A DNA stretch of 64,000 nucleotides from Oscillospiraceae bacterium. GTDB taxonomy: Bacteria; Bacillota; Clostridia; Oscillospirales; UBA929. Positions 19,360 to 54,283 of this stretch are shown piece after piece. The notes beneath the pieces are model-generated. The model saw only the letters and a list, made by a program, of their open reading frames with translations, did no database searches and was not told the DNA's origin. The stretch covers positions 9,254 to 73,253 of the forward strand of contig JAVBPM010000002.1 in the NCBI GenBank assembly GCA_031549605.1. The letters are read 5' to 3'. How positions within the stretch are numbered: position 1 is the first letter of the stretch; every line of letters starts with the position of its first letter. The position numbers were made by a program, and so were the translations under genes.

Positions 19360-19417
19360 ATGGTTACTCCTTCAATTCCAAATTGCGTGAGCGGCGGCGC
19401 ATGAGTCACGCGTTCAT

Positions 19418-19460
19418 AAAATGCGAGCATTTTTGTTGACACGCATGGCTCAGCGCTTAG
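19418..19460 (-). repeat. 43-nt box immediately downstream of the rpsG stop (copy 1)
   Basis: 38/43 identical to 20157-20199. Contains the mini-palindrome AAAATGC..GCATTTT. The 21 nt proximal to the stop codon (CACGCATGGCTCAGCGCTTAG on the plus strand) are identical in both copies. Confidence 0.85.
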
Positions 19461-19935: not shown

Positions 19936-20156
19936 TTGACTTCCCTCCTTCTAATAAATAGATTTCATAGGTACTCGAAAGATGAATTTTTCTCCCGTCG
20001 CGCCCTGTATGCAAACAAGGCAAATCCTTGGGCTAAACAATTCATGGTTGCGTCGAAAGGTGGCTAAGTTTTGCTGTGGCACGCTTCGCTCATGCTCTCA
20101 CTCCGCCCTGCCGTTTGTCCCCTCGGGACAATCGTCAGGTCTGCGTTCGGGTTCTC

Positions 20157-20199
20157 AAAATGCAAGCATTTTGTTCGCCACGCATGGCTCAGCGCTTAG
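20157..20199 (-). repeat. 43-nt box immediately downstream of the rpsL stop (copy 2)
   Basis: Same box as 19418-19460, ending 1 nt from the rpsL stop codon. Confidence 0.85.
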
Positions 20200-21503: not shown

Positions 21504-21532
21504 AAGGGCCGGAGCACAACGCTCCGGCCCTA
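21504..21532. repeat. Left copy of the duplicated 29-bp terminator-like hairpin flanking repeat copy A
   Basis: AAGGGCCGGAGCACAACGCTCCGGCCCTA with a 10-bp GC stem. It is 28/29 identical to 21784-21812; the only difference is in the loop. Confidence 0.9.
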
Positions 21533-21783
21533 CAGACTGTCAAAAAAGCGCGCACCGTAAAACCGGTGCCAGAAGAAAGAGGAGACGTCAACGCAAAGCC
21601 GTGTCTTGATTCTCGACTGACGATGTGTGGTGCATCGACAAGGTCGCTGCGCCGCAATGGTTTCACTTGCTGCAGAAACGCTGTCCTAGCGTACCGTCGT
21701 ACGCCGACGGACAGCGTTTCTTTGCCTGCGCACTTCTTTGTCAGTCTGTCAGCGTGTCAAAAAACAAGTTGTTTGACACGCTG
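21533..21783 (+). mobile_element. MITE-like non-coding repeat, copy A (251 bp)
   Basis: Starts CAGACTGTCAAAAAAG and ends GTTTGACACGCTG, which are imperfect terminal inverted repeats. It aligns along its length with 34558-34805 (reverse) and 51284-51532. Reading frames are not conserved between copies. Confidence 0.75.
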
Positions 21784-21812
21784 AAGGGCCGGAGCGCAAC
21801 GCTCCGGCCCTA
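21784..21812. repeat. Right copy of the duplicated 29-bp hairpin flanking repeat copy A
   Basis: AAGGGCCGGAGCGCAACGCTCCGGCCCTA. Confidence 0.9.
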
Positions 21813-31317: not shown

Positions 31318-34300
31318 ATGAAAAAGAGGCACTTATCTCTCTTGCTGGCCATGACGCTGGTTGTGGCACTGTTTGCGCAAAGCGGCGCAGCACTCGAACC
31401 AAGCGCCGTCGTACGCCCCGTATTTACAGGCGCTACAATGCCCATTGAGCGCGGTCATACCATTGAGGACATTGTGGCGATGGCCGAGGCGCATCCGCAC
31501 ACCGGCTTTTCGCGCTACATCACCACGCGCTACGCCACAACGCCCAGTTTTACGGTGCCTTACGCCGCCGGGTCACTGAACACCGACGACCTGGATGACG
31601 CCAAGAACGCCATTATTATGTGCCGATACCTCGCCGGTGTGCCGTACGACAATGTCACACTGCCCAGCGAGCTCAACGATATAGCGCAACACGGCGCCGT
31701 TTTGCTGGCCGCCAGCAACCAGTTTGCACACGAGCCCACCAAGCCGGCCGATATGCCCGAAGCGTTTTTCGACAAGGGCTTTATCGGTTGCAGCAATGCC
31801 AACATCAATGCAGGCCGCACCAATATTTCCAACGTCGTCATTGGGCTGATGGCCGACGCCGGTGCAAACAACATTGAACGAGCGGGTCACAGGCGTTGGG
31901 TCTTGAAACCTTACAGCCAGGCCTTCGGTCTCGGATTTGCCCAGAACACCAGTGGCTCGATTTTGTATCAGGGCGCCCGCACCAATATGCACGTTTTTGA
32001 TAACTCCTCGGCCATGTATACCACCCAGGCCGACACCTACATTGCCTGGCCAAGCGCCGGCGCTTTTCCCATTCAATACTTTGCCTTTGAACACGGCATG
32101 ACCAGCGCACCCGCCTACCCTTGGTCGATTAACCTCGGCGCAGCATACAGCGCGCCCGACAAAGCGCTTATGACGCTGACGCTGACGCGTGCCCGCGACG
32201 GCAAGGTATGGACCTTCGACAAAAACACGCCCAGCCTGGCTGGCGTCGATAGCGCACCCGGCATGCACTTTGCCTCAGATGACGGCGGCTACGGTATTAG
32301 GAAAGCCATCACCTTCCGACCCGACTTGGCGTCGCTGGGCGCTCTTGAGGACGGCGACACGTTTACCGTCAACATCACCGGCATCAAAACGGCGGCCGGC
32401 GCCGACACGACACTCACCTACACCATCAACTTCTTTGACTTGGAAGCGGCCATGACGCCCATTGTGCCGGTTACCTTTACCATTAGCGGCACGAGCAAGA
32501 CCTACAACGGCGCGGCGCAGGGCGTAACAGTCACAGCCGATCCGGCCGGCGCGGAATACAGGGTGCTCTACAACGGTTCCACGACGCTGCCGAAAAACGC
32601 CGGCAGCTATGATGTGACTGTCGAGGCGACAGGCGAAGGCTTTACCGGCTCGCAGACAGCGACGCTGACCATCGCCAAAAAGTCACTGTCCGTTTCCGGA
32701 CTCACGGTCAAGAACCGCGGCTACAGTGCCGGCGACGTTTCCGCCGAGGTCGACGCCAGCGCCTACACGCTGACCGGCAAGGTGGCGGGCGACGATGTGG
32801 CGCTCAACACGGCACTGCTGTCCGCCGTTTTCTCCACCGATCAACCGGGCGCCAGCGTGCCGGCCGTTATTTCCGGCCTTGCACTTACGGGCAGTGACAG
32901 GAACAACTACACACTGGCGAGCACGACAGTGAACACCACGGCGGCCATTTATGCGTCCGTTGTGCCGGTCACCTTTACCGTTAGCGGCACGAGCAAAACC
33001 TACAACGGCGCGACGCAGGGCGTGTCCGTCTCCACAAGCCCGGCCGGCGCCGTTTATTCGGTGCGCTACAACGGCTCCACGACGCTGCCGAAAAACGCCG
33101 GCAGCTATGCCGTGGTTGTCGAGGCGACAGGAGAAGGCTTTACCGGCTCGCAGACAGCGACGCTGACTATCGCCAAAAAGACGTTGACCGTTTCCGGCCT
33201 CACAGTCAAGAACCGCGTCTACAGTGCCGGCGACGTCTCCGCCGAGGTCGACGCCAGCGCCTACACGCTGACCGGCAAGGTATCGGGCGACAATGTGGCG
33301 CTTAACACGGCGCTGCTTTCCGCCGTTTTCTCCACCGATCAACCGGGCGCCAACGTACCGGCCGTTATATCGGGTCTTGCCCTTACCGGCAGTGCCAGCG
33401 CAAACTACACGCTGGCGAGCACGACGGTGAACACCACGGCAGCCATTTATGCGTCCGTTGTGCCGGTTACCTTTACCATTAGCGGCACGAGCAAGACCTA
33501 CAACGGCGCGACGCAGGGCGTAACAGTCACCTCCAGCCCGACCGGCGCCGCCTATACGGTACGCTACAACGGCTCCACGACGCTGCCAAAAAACGCCGGC
33601 AGCTATGCTGTGGTTGTCGAGGCGACTGGCGCAGGCTTTACCGGCTCGCAGACTGCGACACTGACCATCGCCAAGAAGTCACTGTCCGTTTCAGGCCTCA
33701 AGGTCAAGAGCCGTAATTACAAGGCCGGCTCCGTCGCCGCCGAGGTCGACGCCAGCGCCTATTCGCTGGTCGGCAAGGTATCGGGCGACAATGTGGCGCT
33801 TAACACGGCGCTGCTCACCGCCAAGTTCTCCACCGACCAACCGGGCACCAGCGTGCCGGCCGTTATATCGGGCCTTGCCCTTACCGGCAGTGCCAGCGCC
33901 AACTACACGCTGGCGAGTACAACGGTAAACACCACGGCGGCCATTACGATGCCTGCGTGGATCAACCCCTATACCGATGTTGCGAAGAGCGACTGGTTCT
34001 ATAGCGCCGTTGCCTACGTCAGCCAGCGCGGTCTGATGTCGGGTATGGCGGGTGGCACCACCTTTGCGCCCATGGCTCCGTTGAGCCGCGCTATGGTCGC
34101 CACGGTGCTCTACCGCATGTCGGGCTCGCCGAGCGAGACCTACTCGGCTATCTTTACCGATGTGCCCAACGGCCAGTGGTACTCCAAGCCCATTACCTGG
34201 GCCTACCGGAACAACATTGTGGGCGGCAAGGGCAATGGTCTGTTTGGCACCAATGAGAACATTTCACGCGAACAGCTGGCCGCCATGATATACCGCTACG

Positions 34301-34518
34301 CCCAGTTCAGAAAAATTGACACCTCTGCCACCGTCAGTCTCACCGGATATACCGACGCTAAAGCGATTAGCTCCTATGCCGTCACGCCCATGCGCTGGGC
34401 CGTGGCAGTGGGAATCATCAGCGGCAAGACGAAAACAACACTCAATCCGAGCGGCTTTGCCAACCGCGCCGAATGCGCCACCATCCTCATGCGGTTTGAC
34501 ATACTTTTGAACTCATAA
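31318..34518 (+). CDS. S-layer-homology (SLH) cell-surface protein with CAP/SCP-like N-terminal domain and three MBG/YDG-type repeats
   Basis: 1066 aa with a signal peptide and a GHRRWVLKP (CAP/SCP-like) motif. There are three 166-aa repeats (VTFTISGTSKTYNGA.QGV...NYTLASTTVNTTAAI) and three C-terminal SLH repeats (FTDV..WY...I.WA). Confidence 0.85.
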   Translation: MKKRHLSLLLAMTLVVALFAQSGAALEPSAVVRPVFTGATMPIERGHTIEDIVAMAEAHPHTGFSRYITTRYATTPSFTVPYAAGSLNTDDLDDAKNAIIMCRYLAGVPYDNVTLPSELNDIAQHGAVLLAASNQFAHEPTKPADMPEAFFDKGFIGCSNANINAGRTNISNVVIGLMADAGANNIERAGHRRWVLKPYSQAFGLGFAQNTSGSILYQGARTNMHVFDNSSAMYTTQADTYIAWPSAGAFPIQYFAFEHGMTSAPAYPWSINLGAAYSAPDKALMTLTLTRARDGKVWTFDKNTPSLAGVDSAPGMHFASDDGGYGIRKAITFRPDLASLGALEDGDTFTVNITGIKTAAGADTTLTYTINFFDLEAAMTPIVPVTFTISGTSKTYNGAAQGVTVTADPAGAEYRVLYNGSTTLPKNAGSYDVTVEATGEGFTGSQTATLTIAKKSLSVSGLTVKNRGYSAGDVSAEVDASAYTLTGKVAGDDVALNTALLSAVFSTDQPGASVPAVISGLALTGSDRNNYTLASTTVNTTAAIYASVVPVTFTVSGTSKTYNGATQGVSVSTSPAGAVYSVRYNGSTTLPKNAGSYAVVVEATGEGFTGSQTATLTIAKKTLTVSGLTVKNRVYSAGDVSAEVDASAYTLTGKVSGDNVALNTALLSAVFSTDQPGANVPAVISGLALTGSASANYTLASTTVNTTAAIYASVVPVTFTISGTSKTYNGATQGVTVTSSPTGAAYTVRYNGSTTLPKNAGSYAVVVEATGAGFTGSQTATLTIAKKSLSVSGLKVKSRNYKAGSVAAEVDASAYSLVGKVSGDNVALNTALLTAKFSTDQPGTSVPAVISGLALTGSASANYTLASTTVNTTAAITMPAWINPYTDVAKSDWFYSAVAYVSQRGLMSGMAGGTTFAPMAPLSRAMVATVLYRMSGSPSETYSAIFTDVPNGQWYSKPITWAYRNNIVGGKGNGLFGTNENISREQLAAMIYRYAQFRKIDTSATVSLTGYTDAKAISSYAVTPMRWAVAVGIISGKTKTTLNPSGFANRAECATILMRFDILLNS
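32461..33946 (+). repeat. In-frame tandem repeat, 3 x 498 bp, inside the SLH protein gene
   Basis: Units start at 32461, 32959 and 33457. They are near-identical at the nucleotide level (for example GTGCCGGT[T/C]ACCTTTACC[A/G]TTAGCGGCACGAGCAA[G/A]ACCTACAACGGCGCG). Confidence 0.9.
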
Positions 34519-34525
34519 GACACAA

Positions 34526-34557
34526 CAAAATGCCGGCCCATTCGGGCCGGCATTTTT
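34526..34557. repeat. Left copy of the duplicated 32-bp bidirectional-terminator hairpin flanking repeat copy B
   Basis: CAAAATGCCGGCCCATTCGGGCCGGCATTTTT. Confidence 0.9.
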
Positions 34558-34805
34558 CAGCGTGTCAAAAAACTTGTTATTGGCACGCTGACAGACTGAC
34601 AAAGAAGTGCGCAGGCAAAAAACACTGTCCGTCGGCGTACGATGGTACGCCAGGACAGCGTTTATGCAGCAAGTAAACCTTTGTGGCGCAGCGACTTTGT
34701 CGATGCGCCACAAATCATTAGGGGCAACTCAAAACGCAGCCTTACGTCGCCGTTTTCTCTTTTTTCTGACACCGGTTTTACGGTGCGCTCTTTTTTGACA
34801 GTCTG
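34558..34805 (-). mobile_element. MITE-like non-coding repeat, copy B (248 bp, inverted orientation)
   Basis: The reverse complement starts CAGACTGTCAAAAAAG and ends TTTTTGACACGCTG. It aligns with copies A and C throughout. Confidence 0.75.
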
Positions 34806-34837
34806 CAAAATGCCGACCCAAACGGGTCGGCATTTTT
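34806..34837. repeat. Right copy of the duplicated 32-bp hairpin flanking repeat copy B
   Basis: CAAAATGCCGACCCAAACGGGTCGGCATTTTT. It has 4 differences from the left copy, two of which form a compensatory stem pair. Confidence 0.9.
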
Positions 34838-34849
34838 TGATGGATTGAA

Positions 34850-35290
34850 TTAGCCGAGGATGTCGGCAAACTGGCTGATGGCGTAGTCCTTGTCCTCGGT
34901 TTTGGCGATGGCCTGACAGGCCTGTAGACCCAGGGTCTTGTTCTCGGCCGCCTTGTCGGCGTCGCCCAGCACGGCGTAGGCGCGTGCCAGCGCTTCGTAG
35001 CCGAAGGCGAGGTCAAAGTCGCCGATGCCGTTCTGCTGAATGGTATCCATCGACGTCTTGGCAAACAGCAACGCCGGAGCGCCCATGCCGAGCAGTGCGT
35101 AGACGTGGGACACCTGCCACTCGCCACGTGCCAGATTGACCGGCTGGCAGCCCTCGACCTGCGACCACAGGTAGTACGAGGCGTGCGCGCTGTGCAGCAT
35201 TTGGGCGTCGTCGGCCAACGTGCGATCGGCCTTGTCAATCAGGTCCCATGTGCCGTTAAACAGCGCAATGGCTGTTTTTTTGACGTCCAT
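34850..35290 (-). CDS. Hypothetical helical protein, translationally coupled to the SPFH gene
   Basis: 146-aa ORF. Its ATG overlaps the SPFH stop (TAATG). Confidence 0.6.
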   Translation of the reverse strand: MDVKKTAIALFNGTWDLIDKADRTLADDAQMLHSAHASYYLWSQVEGCQPVNLARGEWQVSHVYALLGMGAPALLFAKTSMDTIQQNGIGDFDLAFGYEALARAYAVLGDADKAAENKTLGLQACQAIAKTEDKDYAISQFADILG

Positions 35291-51249: not shown

Positions 51250-51283
51250 TAACGCCGCTTCCGATTGACCGGAAGCGGCGTTT
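51250..51283. repeat. Left copy of the duplicated 34-bp hairpin flanking repeat copy C
   Basis: TAACGCCGCTTCCGATTGACCGGAAGCGGCGTTT. Confidence 0.9.
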
Positions 51284-51532
51284 CAGACTGTCAAAAAAGC
51301 GCGCACCGTATAACCCGTGTCAGAAAAGAGCGTACGCGGCGACGTAAGGCGGCGTTTTGGTTCTCCGCTAAAGATTTGCGGCGCATTGACAAGATCACTG
51401 CGCCACAATGGTTTTACTTGCTGCAGAAACGTTGTCCTAGCGTACCATCGTACGCCGACGGACAGCGTTTCTTTGCCTGCGCATTTCTTTGTCAGTCTGC
51501 AGCGTGCCAAAAACAAGTTTTTTGACACGCTG
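51284..51532 (+). mobile_element. MITE-like non-coding repeat, copy C (249 bp)
   Basis: Starts CAGACTGTCAAAAAAG and ends TTTTTGACACGCTG. It aligns with copies A and B throughout. Confidence 0.75.
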
Positions 51533-51566
51533 TAACGCCGCTTCCGATTCGCCGGAAGCGGCGTTT
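51533..51566. repeat. Right copy of the duplicated 34-bp hairpin flanking repeat copy C
   Basis: TAACGCCGCTTCCGATTCGCCGGAAGCGGCGTTT. The two differences from the left copy are both in the loop. Confidence 0.9.
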
Positions 51567-52685: not shown

Positions 52686-54221
52686 ATGCCGAGTTCGCGC
52701 CGCAGCGTTGTGTGCCTGTTGCTGAGCCTTATGCTGGTCTGTCTGTGCGGCTGCACCGAGACGCCCGTCGTTCAGGACACCGACAAATTGGGCGCCAACG
52801 ACTTTGCCAAAGACGCCATTCAATGGCTGTACAACAACGGCATTATTTCACAGCCTGAGCTGCAGCAGTTTAACGCCGGTATGCCCATTACGCCGTCCGA
52901 CTTCAGCCAGTGGCTGCAACGTGCCGAGCTGTCGACCAGCACCTTCGGCACCGCCGGTTCCATGGTCACCTGCAAGGATTTTGCCGAGTACGCCGTGTCG
53001 CTGCTCAACATGAGCAGCATTGCCTCACGTTACGGCGGCGTTGACGTCTGTCAGACCTTTAAGCTACTGCCCGAGGATATGAAGCTAACCTCTGACGCCG
53101 CCATGACGCGCGCGCAGGCCGCCTATTTTCTATGCAGTCTGAAGAGCGTACTGAAGAATAAAGCCGAGGGGCTGTACGCCTTTTACGCCATTTCGTCCTA
53201 CGACCAGCGCGACATGATTGAACAGCTGAGCGGCGTTAGCATGGGTTGGAGCCGCTTCGAGGTCACCGAGGACAGCGTCTACCTCAACACCAGCACCGAC
53301 AACGACAACGAGTACAGCATGCCCAACAGCAGCGAAGAGATTATCGAGCTGGCCGAGAGTCACAACGTGCCGTACAACCTGATGATTGCCGTCGGTGTCG
53401 GCACGGTCAACGGCATGCAAAAGGCCGAGCATCTGCTCAACACACCATCGCTGCGCGACAAGGCCATGACCGAGCTGCTCGATGTGGCACAAAACGGCGC
53501 TAAAACCAAAAACGGTGGCCGCATCCATTTCAAGGGCATCACACTGGATTTGGAGTGCATGGCCGGCGCTGAGGTGCGCGAGGCCTACAACGAGTTTGTC
53601 AAAGAGCTGCGAAACAAGCTGCCGGCCAACTACAACCTCATGATTTGCGTTCATCCGGCGCGCAGCAATGGGCGATCCTACTACAACGGCTACGACTTCA
53701 AGGTGTTGGGCGACAACAGCGACGGGCTGATTGTCATGGCGCACGACTACTACACCAAGTCGCTGTCGGAGGAGGAACAGTTAATCGGCGCGGTCAACAC
53801 GCCGCCGGCGCCCATTTACGAGCTCTACTACGCCATTAAATACGCCACCGACCCCACGACGGGCACTGACCCCAAGAAGGTATGGCTGGCGGTGTCCTTT
53901 GACAGTGTGCAGTGGCAGCTGGATGGCGGTCGCGTCAAAAACGCCACGCCCTACCACCCCACCTACGACGCCATTGCCGCGCGGCTGCCGTCGGCAACCG
54001 TCACACACGGCGACAGCGGCAACCCCAAAGCGGTGTGGGACGCTGACGGACTGAGCAACGTCATGTTCTACGAGGACACCTATTCGGTCATGCAGAAGCA
54101 GGCGCTGGCCGACGCCTTTGACATTGCCGGACTGTCGCTGTGGCGGCTGGGCTGCGTGCCCGACTTCGGTGCCGACATTGAACTGGACGTCTGGCAGTCG
54201 CTGATTAACCGCAACAAGTAA
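52686..54221 (+). CDS. Glycoside hydrolase family 18-like lipoprotein (YaaH/YdhD-like)
   Basis: Track ORF 52680..54221. ATG 52686 follows AAGGGGGG. It has the lipobox LCGCT and KGITLDLECM (a DxxDxDxE-type GH18 motif, partly degenerate). Confidence 0.7.
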   Translation: MPSSRRSVVCLLLSLMLVCLCGCTETPVVQDTDKLGANDFAKDAIQWLYNNGIISQPELQQFNAGMPITPSDFSQWLQRAELSTSTFGTAGSMVTCKDFAEYAVSLLNMSSIASRYGGVDVCQTFKLLPEDMKLTSDAAMTRAQAAYFLCSLKSVLKNKAEGLYAFYAISSYDQRDMIEQLSGVSMGWSRFEVTEDSVYLNTSTDNDNEYSMPNSSEEIIELAESHNVPYNLMIAVGVGTVNGMQKAEHLLNTPSLRDKAMTELLDVAQNGAKTKNGGRIHFKGITLDLECMAGAEVREAYNEFVKELRNKLPANYNLMICVHPARSNGRSYYNGYDFKVLGDNSDGLIVMAHDYYTKSLSEEEQLIGAVNTPPAPIYELYYAIKYATDPTTGTDPKKVWLAVSFDSVQWQLDGGRVKNATPYHPTYDAIAARLPSATVTHGDSGNPKAVWDADGLSNVMFYEDTYSVMQKQALADAFDIAGLSLWRLGCVPDFGADIELDVWQSLINRNK

Positions 54222-54276
54222 CTTACATATTAAAACGGCAGCCAACGGATGTTGGCTGCCGTTTTAATATGTAAGT
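54221..54276. terminator. Bidirectional terminator: perfect 26-bp-arm palindrome (single hairpin at a convergent junction)
   Basis: ACTTACATATTAAAACGGCAGCCAAC-GGAT-GTTGGCTGCCGTTTTAATATGTAAGT. The arms are exact reverse complements of each other. Confidence 0.7.
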
Positions 54277-54283
54277 TACTTGA

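Follow-up and report, generated by a model that had tools for sequence, protein, structure and literature searches.

A 248 bp IS1182-type element between duplicated terminator-like hairpins in an Oscillospiraceae genome

The spacer between two convergent genes in the genome of this Oscillospiraceae bacterium holds two almost identical stem-loops, each 32 nt long, with 248 bp of DNA between them. Two of the positions at which the stem-loops differ are the two partners of a single base pair, and the pair is intact in both. This arrangement raises the question of how one spacer came to contain two copies of the same hairpin, and whether the paired change means that selection has preserved both of them. 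We conclude, with a probability of about 0.8, that the insertion of a MITE duplicated a terminator hairpin that the two genes had shared, and that the paired change came later, by near-neutral drift with coupling between the arms of the palindrome.

The hairpin pair and its flanking genes

Positions are those of the window, the whole 64,000 nt stretch of DNA that was analysed (Table 1). Read off the sequence, the left hairpin is CAAAATGCCGGCCCATTCGGGCCGGCATTTTT and the right hairpin is CAAAATGCCGACCCAAACGGGTCGGCATTTTT, and these letters and their positions match exactly those given in an earlier, sequence-only reading of the locus. The hairpins differ at four of their 32 positions. The left copy has G 34536 and C 34547 where the right copy has A 34816 and T 34827, and the adjacent TT at 34541-34542 in the left loop corresponds to AA at 34821-34822 in the right. 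As 34536 and 34547 are partners in the 13 bp stem, the two stem differences amount to a G:C pair in the left copy and an A:T pair in the right, with Watson-Crick pairing intact in both, as the sequence-only reading had recognised. Pairing and folding confirmed that both 13 bp stems are perfect, with predicted folding energies of -24.3 and -22.2 kcal/mol. The two hairpins have T/U tails and folding energies of -22 to -31 kcal/mol whichever strand is taken. When the whole genome was searched, no other sequence was found within 4 mismatches of either hairpin core. As there is no lookalike of either core in the genome, and as the same layout is found at all of the full-length copies of the element described below (41/41), the arrangement at this copy, here named copy B, is not due to chance.

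The element does lie between the SLH protein gene on the + strand and the hypothetical protein gene on the - strand; the two genes are convergent and end 7 and 12 nt, respectively, from the hairpins. The 146 aa gene closes a CarB-NfeD-SPFH-hypothetical run on the - strand. On the + strand the left hairpin has 8 GC-rich pairs followed by AUUUUU, and is the proximal predicted terminator of the SLH gene. On the - strand the right hairpin is followed by AUUUUG, a tail with only 4 U, and is the proximal predicted terminator of the 146 aa gene. Both hairpins are GC-rich stem-loops with a U-run close to a stop codon, the sequence criterion for an intrinsic (Rho-independent) terminator, and the proposed shape of a bidirectional intrinsic terminator, a perfect stem between an A-run and a T-run, is borne out. 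A simple terminator scanner flagged only hairpin 1 on the - strand, because it counted the A/T runs as part of the stem. Both hairpins are still intact and, judged by their sequence, very probably still act as terminators.

A promoter scan found no sigma-70-like site in or around the copy B element. An Rfam scan of 34400-34950 returned only sub-threshold matches, which are due to the terminator hairpins, and no known RNA family. Within the SLH gene, three 300 nt repeats that are 87% identical and spaced 498 nt apart (32456-33751) correspond to MBG/YDG domain modules.

Table 1. Copy B, its flanking hairpins and genes, and the other copies of the element in the window
Feature	Position	Strand	Remarks
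SLH / MBG / YDG-domain surface protein gene, 1066 aa	31318..34518	+	stop 7 nt before left hairpin
Left hairpin copy, target-site duplication	34526..34557	.	32 nt; stem 34527-34539 / 34544-34556, loop ATTC, then T5
Non-autonomous IS1182-type element (MITE), copy B	34558..34805	+	248 bp, no ORF of gene-like score, strongly self-folding (DNA fold z = -8)
Left terminal palindrome	34558..34590	+	outer inverted repeat CAGCGTGTCAAAAAAC abutting an inverted second copy
Internal third end-like repeat CAGACTGACAAAGAAGTGCGCA	34592..34613	+	pairs with right end as a 22 bp inverted repeat
Right terminal inverted repeat	34784..34805	-	reads CAGACTGTCAAAAAAGAGCGCA on the - strand
Right hairpin copy	34806..34837	.	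loop AAAC; A 34816 and T 34827 versus G:C pair of left copy
Conserved hypothetical protein gene, 146 aa	34850..35290	-	no Pfam family; stop 12 nt after right hairpin
Copy A of element with its own duplicated hairpin (AGGGCCGGAGC...)	21505..21811	-	opposite orientation to copy B
Copy C of element with its own duplicated hairpin (AACGCCGCTTCCG...)	51251..51565	-	opposite orientation to copy B

The element family and related IS1182-type insertion sequences

The terminal inverted repeats of the 248 bp element are CAGCGTGTCAAAAAAC and CAGACTGTCAAAAAAG. Two extra end-like copies are found at its left side, the second inverted (element positions 16-34) and the third direct (35-56), and the element also includes two internal hairpins. 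Gene calling found no gene inside it, and no Rfam family was matched at threshold. When the 1.95 Mb genome (88 contigs) was searched with the element, approximately 52 matches representing about 50 copies were returned. Two of these are copies A and C in the window, and copy B is inverted relative to both, as the sequence-only reading had noted.

All of the full-length copies with readable flanks (41/41) have a direct duplication of a whole GC-rich hairpin on their two sides, and the hairpin is specific to each locus. The duplications range from 19 to 39 bp (mean 29) and their length tracks the size of the local palindrome. Most of their ends fall 0-3 nt from the palindrome foot, as a rule within the A/T runs beside it; 30/41 duplications begin with A and 28/41 end with T. 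As a duplication is present at every full-length copy and its length follows that of the palindrome, we conclude that the hairpins are target-site duplications, the length of which is set by DNA structure.

It is extremely improbable that the two hairpins are instead a tandem terminator older than the element, or an artefact of assembly. The fragmented 88-contig assembly is the one point in favour of this. Against it, the order flank-element-flank recurs at 41/41 loci with a different hairpin at each, the two hairpins of copy B are each other's sole relatives in the genome, and identical duplications are found at fresh full-length insertion sequences in a complete genome (see below). That the insertion is no assembly artefact, as the sequence-only reading had argued, is certain, given about 50 copies that each have their own hairpin pair. 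The same reading held the insertion to be old, which is fair in a relative sense: with differences at 4/32 positions the copy B duplication is among the three most diverged of the family, and the insertion is not recent. The body of copy B is average (16 mismatches to the consensus, including 4 private ones), and across the family the divergence of an element copy is not correlated with that of its duplication (Spearman rho about 0).

Several copies depart from the usual structure. A head-to-tail dimer of the element lies within a single hairpin pair at G000:C83:9330-9795. Six copies (C24:61719, C81:6036, C52:14144, C51:9138, C12:713 and C35:17305) are missing 10-36 bp at the left, along with the left hairpin or part of it, and in C81:6036 the left end was lost via GGCAC microhomology. 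Right-side truncation was seen in no copy of the element.

The ends of the MITE (CAGNNTGTCAAAAAA) match those of IS1182-family insertion sequences in related genomes. In genomes of the same family, transposase genes were identified by a score above the NF033551 cut-off. The IS1182 element L035 has the ends CAGACTGTCAAAGAA and CAGGCTGTCAAAAAAG, which contain the same motif as the MITE ends; the ends are CAGCCTGTCAAAGAA in L036 and CAGACTGTCAAAAAAC in L038. In all three elements the ends bound ORFs that match NF033551, and adjoin hairpins. More generally, the full-length IS1182 elements of related Clostridia (seven copies in genome G105, L034 in G008, L035 in G021 and L036 in G004) share the terminal motif CAGNCTGTCAAA... 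or CAGAYYGTCGACAAA... with the MITE.

These full-length elements are also found at terminator hairpins flanked by A/T runs, and whole-hairpin duplications of 18-30 bp are present at 8/10 readable copies. L034 has a direct duplication of AAGCGTCGAATGACGCTG on both sides. G105, a complete genome of the same order, contains seven identical 1573 bp IS1182-family copies (L136, L152 and L156-L160, all in C1), with a different 22-30 bp terminator hairpin duplicated, in direct orientation and without mismatch, on the two sides of each (7/7). The transposase-bearing elements L035 and L038 have two different hairpins as flanks, and duplication is therefore not the sole outcome. Whole-hairpin duplication is nonetheless the regular behaviour of this IS1182 clade, and the G105 elements, which are apparently active, provide a clean, full-length example of it. 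Unlike the MITE, the full-length elements are about 1.5 kb and encode a 464-498 aa transposase, and none is present in this genome. Their duplications are perfect, hence recent, whereas those of the MITE have diverged by up to 12%.

No match to DUF772, DDE_Tnp_1 or NF033551, and no tblastn match better than E = 0.5, was found for an IS1182 transposase in this assembly, which is 96.9% complete in 88 contigs and may have left an insertion sequence unassembled. The MITE itself was absent from the 40 related genomes searched. As expected of a MITE derived from IS1182, it has matching inverted repeats, small, non-coding and dispersed copies with their own duplications, and a hairpin target with long repeats of variable length; what is missing is a cognate autonomous partner in this genome. 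It is a non-autonomous, apparently orphaned IS1182 derivative.

Movement by some other system, such as an IS200/IS605 or REP-associated Y1 transposase, an IS110/IS1111 recombinase or a retroelement such as a group IIC intron, is very unlikely. These systems are known at hairpins or terminators (PMC1525189, PMC3333891, PMC7923331), and a genome without an IS1182 transposase would suit them. However, the terminal inverted repeats of 15-22 bp carry a motif identical to that at the ends of transposase-bearing IS1182 elements, which make the same whole-hairpin duplication, and the lack of an Rfam match at threshold also speaks against a retroelement or other such mover. The element makes long direct duplications, and we know of none made by Y1, IS110 or group II systems.

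Proposed route of insertion and comparison with known elements

Before the insertion, the SLH gene and the 146 aa gene would have had one common bidirectional intrinsic terminator, a 13 bp palindrome between an A-run and a T-run. Reconstruction of the empty site gives a spacer of about 51 nt with a single bidirectional terminator in it. A 248 bp MITE of the IS1182 family would have transposed into this terminator with transposase supplied in trans; as there is no IS1182 transposase in the assembly, mobilisation in trans is something that we can only infer. The palindrome might extrude, or might fold on single-stranded DNA, and the transposase would attach each 3' end of the element to one of the two strands, at opposite palindrome feet, which would give strand transfer a cruciform-foot geometry. 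With a stagger equal to the whole palindrome, gap repair would copy the entire hairpin and 1-5 bases of the A/T runs to both sides. As the duplication carries bases of these runs, both daughter hairpins would be complete terminators in both directions, and the outcome would be a complete terminator beside each stop codon with the element insulated between them. After insertion, the two hairpin copies would have drifted apart by four changes, with the G:C / A:T difference arising in two steps at mirror positions.

A mode of insertion that leaves a full terminator to each flanking gene would make terminators a safe haven, and this terminator-sparing outcome probably explains how about 50 insertions have been tolerated. 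Of the insertions, 29/41 lie between convergent genes, as compared with 93/208 of the unoccupied strong hairpins in spacers of the convergent or co-directional type (odds ratio 3.3, P = 0.002). We count a copy of the element at about a quarter of all strong hairpin sites that lie between convergent genes in the genome. Two explanations agree with the enrichment: palindromes that have an A-run as well as a T-run may be preferred, or counter-selection may be weaker where the genes converge. For annotation, near-identical terminator pairs about 250-300 bp apart in this lineage should be read as IS1182-type MITE insertions and not as gene-specific regulatory design.

The best-described relatives with a comparable target are IS1272 and the composite TnSha1 of staphylococci, members of the IS1182 family that target terminator hairpins without sequence specificity and delete the hairpin (PMC4923244). 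Duplication of a whole stem-loop has been drawn as a hypothetical alternative (Fig. 13, pathway b, in Wan et al., PMC5678879), and IS1272 forms with a duplicated left end have been described (PMC5678879). The MITE family shares with IS1272 and TnSha1 a DDE-type ancestry, the choice of DNA hairpins, often confirmed terminators, with no primary-sequence consensus, and insertion at the foot of the stem-loop. Its extra end-like repeats on the left also recall the tandem duplication of the left end in IS1272L. It differs from them in that the whole hairpin is duplicated (41/41), whereas part of the hairpin is deleted or replaced by IS1272 and TnSha1 with no target duplication, and in being 248 bp and non-coding, with no transposase in the genome.

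To our knowledge, IS1397/ISKpn1, IS110/IS1111 and group IIC introns use specific repeats or insert beside or inside a hairpin, make short duplications or none, and never duplicate a whole hairpin. These REP- or terminator-associated elements likewise use extragenic palindromes as safe landing sites (IS1397/ISKpn1 and IS110/IS1111 at REPs, PMC1525189; group IIC introns after terminators, PMC7923331).

Divergence of the duplicated hairpins and the paired change

The 41 duplicated hairpin pairs were used as replicates, with stem and loop rates taken from the 33 pairs of equal length. Nine of the 41 pairs are identical. As fresh insertion sequence duplications are identical, loops included, the differences between MITE hairpins arose after insertion. 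Two other origins were considered and rejected. Loops that were unlike from birth through sloppy gap repair are at odds with the 8/8 duplications at full-length IS1182-family copies that are identical including their loops, and gene conversion from another hairpin would call for a similar hairpin, of which there is none elsewhere in the genome.

Relatives with the empty site were sought by several routes. Exact-protein look-ups with the 146 aa and 293 aa neighbour proteins returned no second strain, and no second strain or empty site was found in two metagenome scans or in a genome-collection scan for the right end of the element. A search of 5.8 billion proteins with the 146 aa protein returned no homologue closer than 65% identity. 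In one genome of the same genus and two of the same family, searched at both the DNA and the protein level, coding identities were only 72-75%, with no synteny at three loci. The organism, an uncultured Clostridia/Oscillospiraceae-like bacterium, is without a close relative in the collections. As neither a second strain nor an empty site was found, the four differences at copy B are not polarised.

The sequence-only reading took the paired change to mean that both hairpins are maintained as functional stem-loops, one for each convergent gene. Part of this stands, in that beside the stop of each gene there is still a whole GC-rich hairpin and its T-run. Selection on both is not shown by one compensated pair, as four random changes in copy B were found by simulation to yield a pairing-preserving double change with P = 0.068. 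In its full form, the argument from selection is that both copies work as terminators and that the step from G:C to A:T was a selected compensation via a tolerated G-U intermediate. Perfect stems with T/U tails 7-12 nt from the stop codons agree with it. Stem positions have diverged three times less than loop positions (28/794, 3.5%, versus 15/139, 10.8%; Fisher P = 7e-4), and pairing-preserving double changes number two across the family (copy B and C79_11979) versus 0.35 expected (P = 0.044); both results are also expected under purifying selection on stems. All 82 flanking hairpins of the family are at or below -11.7 kcal/mol, none having decayed past that value, and convergent spacers, the site of 29/41 insertions, are where both copies would be needed.

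Against this, 13 uncompensated single stem changes persist, each with a mismatch in one of the two hairpin copies, and several of these changes are at convergent sites. At the 11 co-directional loci, the copy that the gene needs has fared no better than its redundant partner, being more stable in six, less stable in four and tied in one. Changes of the G-T wobble type make up 5/18 of the single stem changes, no excess over an expected share of about 0.23 (a hand estimate from the transition share). Differences at adjacent loop positions number five pairs versus 1.1 expected (P = 0.0016), and as loop changes are clustered and multi-base, the contrast between loop and stem is not necessarily a measure of constraint. 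At 3.5%, the stem rate is twice the 1.7% per site of changes private to one MITE copy; this neutral yardstick is uncertain, as the total divergence from consensus, 6.4%, would instead fit the loop rate. We therefore regard selected compensation as a serious but unlikely explanation. The paired change is real, but is weak evidence for selection preserving both copies.

A simpler account, in which two independent neutral substitutions fell on paired positions and restored pairing by luck, is improbable. The simulated P of 0.068 allows it, copy B was chosen out of three after inspection, and both changes are ordinary transitions. However, double changes at mirror positions, whatever their effect on pairing, number five across the family versus 0.87 expected (P = 0.0008), or four versus 0.81 with terminal pairs excluded (P = 0.005), and some coupling of the arms thus seems real.

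Coupled mutation of the arms is suggested by this excess, and clustered multi-base change of the loops by that of adjacent loop differences. Palindrome-templated (template-switch) mutation has been documented to give rise, with no part played by selection, to compensatory changes and inverted loops (PMC8794818, PMC7202029, PMC3820800). Such quasipalindrome mutation would account in this way for paired mirror-position changes, for perfect arms and for loop inversions, and the family has both the mirror excess and one probable inversion. Two observations do not fit. One or two of the mirror double changes (C52_6165, perhaps C25_4307) leave a mismatch, against the prediction of complementarity, and by inspection no single switch gives all four of the copy B differences. 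A single template switch or loop inversion was rejected for copy B on this basis, direct and inverted comparison both leaving 4 mismatches.

In C81_7526 (G000:C81:7526-7776), the loops ATCG and TGAT are reverse complements apart from one base, a probable loop inversion by intra-palindrome template switching. The multi-base loop changes in C55_60537 (copy C in the window; GCGAAT/GTCAAT), C71_19541 (GCAA/GTGT), C5_13523 (TTCT/TCAT) and C55_43811 (copy B; ATTC/AAAC) are not simple loop inversions. A perfect palindrome with 32 nt arms and a 4 nt loop lies between two other convergent genes at 54215-54282 in the window. Its arms take in the last codons and stops (…CAAGTAA) of both genes, and for a terminator both its length and its perfection are unusual. 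We count it, beside the C81_7526 loop inversion, as a further palindrome-templated event.

Symmetric mutational hot spots are another possible source of coupling at the copy B stem sites. Both steps of the paired change are C-to-T transitions, one per strand, at GC*CGGC. The genome has a single C5 cytosine DNA methyltransferase gene (G000:C31:75488-76717), and both stem changes are C-to-T in GCCGGC sites.

We thus read the paired change as near-neutral drift with mutational coupling of the arms, whether by template switching or by symmetric hot spots, rather than as proof of selection on both copies. A broader proposal, that mutations of palindrome arms are coupled and those of loops are clustered multi-base changes, so that terminator stems are kept perfect largely by DNA template-switch 'self-correction' and not by RNA selection, is tentative and would more probably fail than hold. 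A single compensated base pair in a DNA palindrome is not to be read as a sign of function, since palindromes can reach complementarity by mutational routes peculiar to them. The roughly 40 internally controlled hairpin pairs could serve as a small natural data set on the decay and repair of terminators and, if the arms are indeed coupled, IS1182-type whole-hairpin duplications would be a general gauge of such mutation across many genomes.

Elsewhere in the window, a 52 nt repeat that is 85% identical is found at 19409-19460 and 20148-20199, 739 nt apart, with no tRNA gene near. Both copies include a small hairpin (AAAATGCGAGCATTTT) with TTGACA after it, and the repeat may be a duplicated promoter or operator region.
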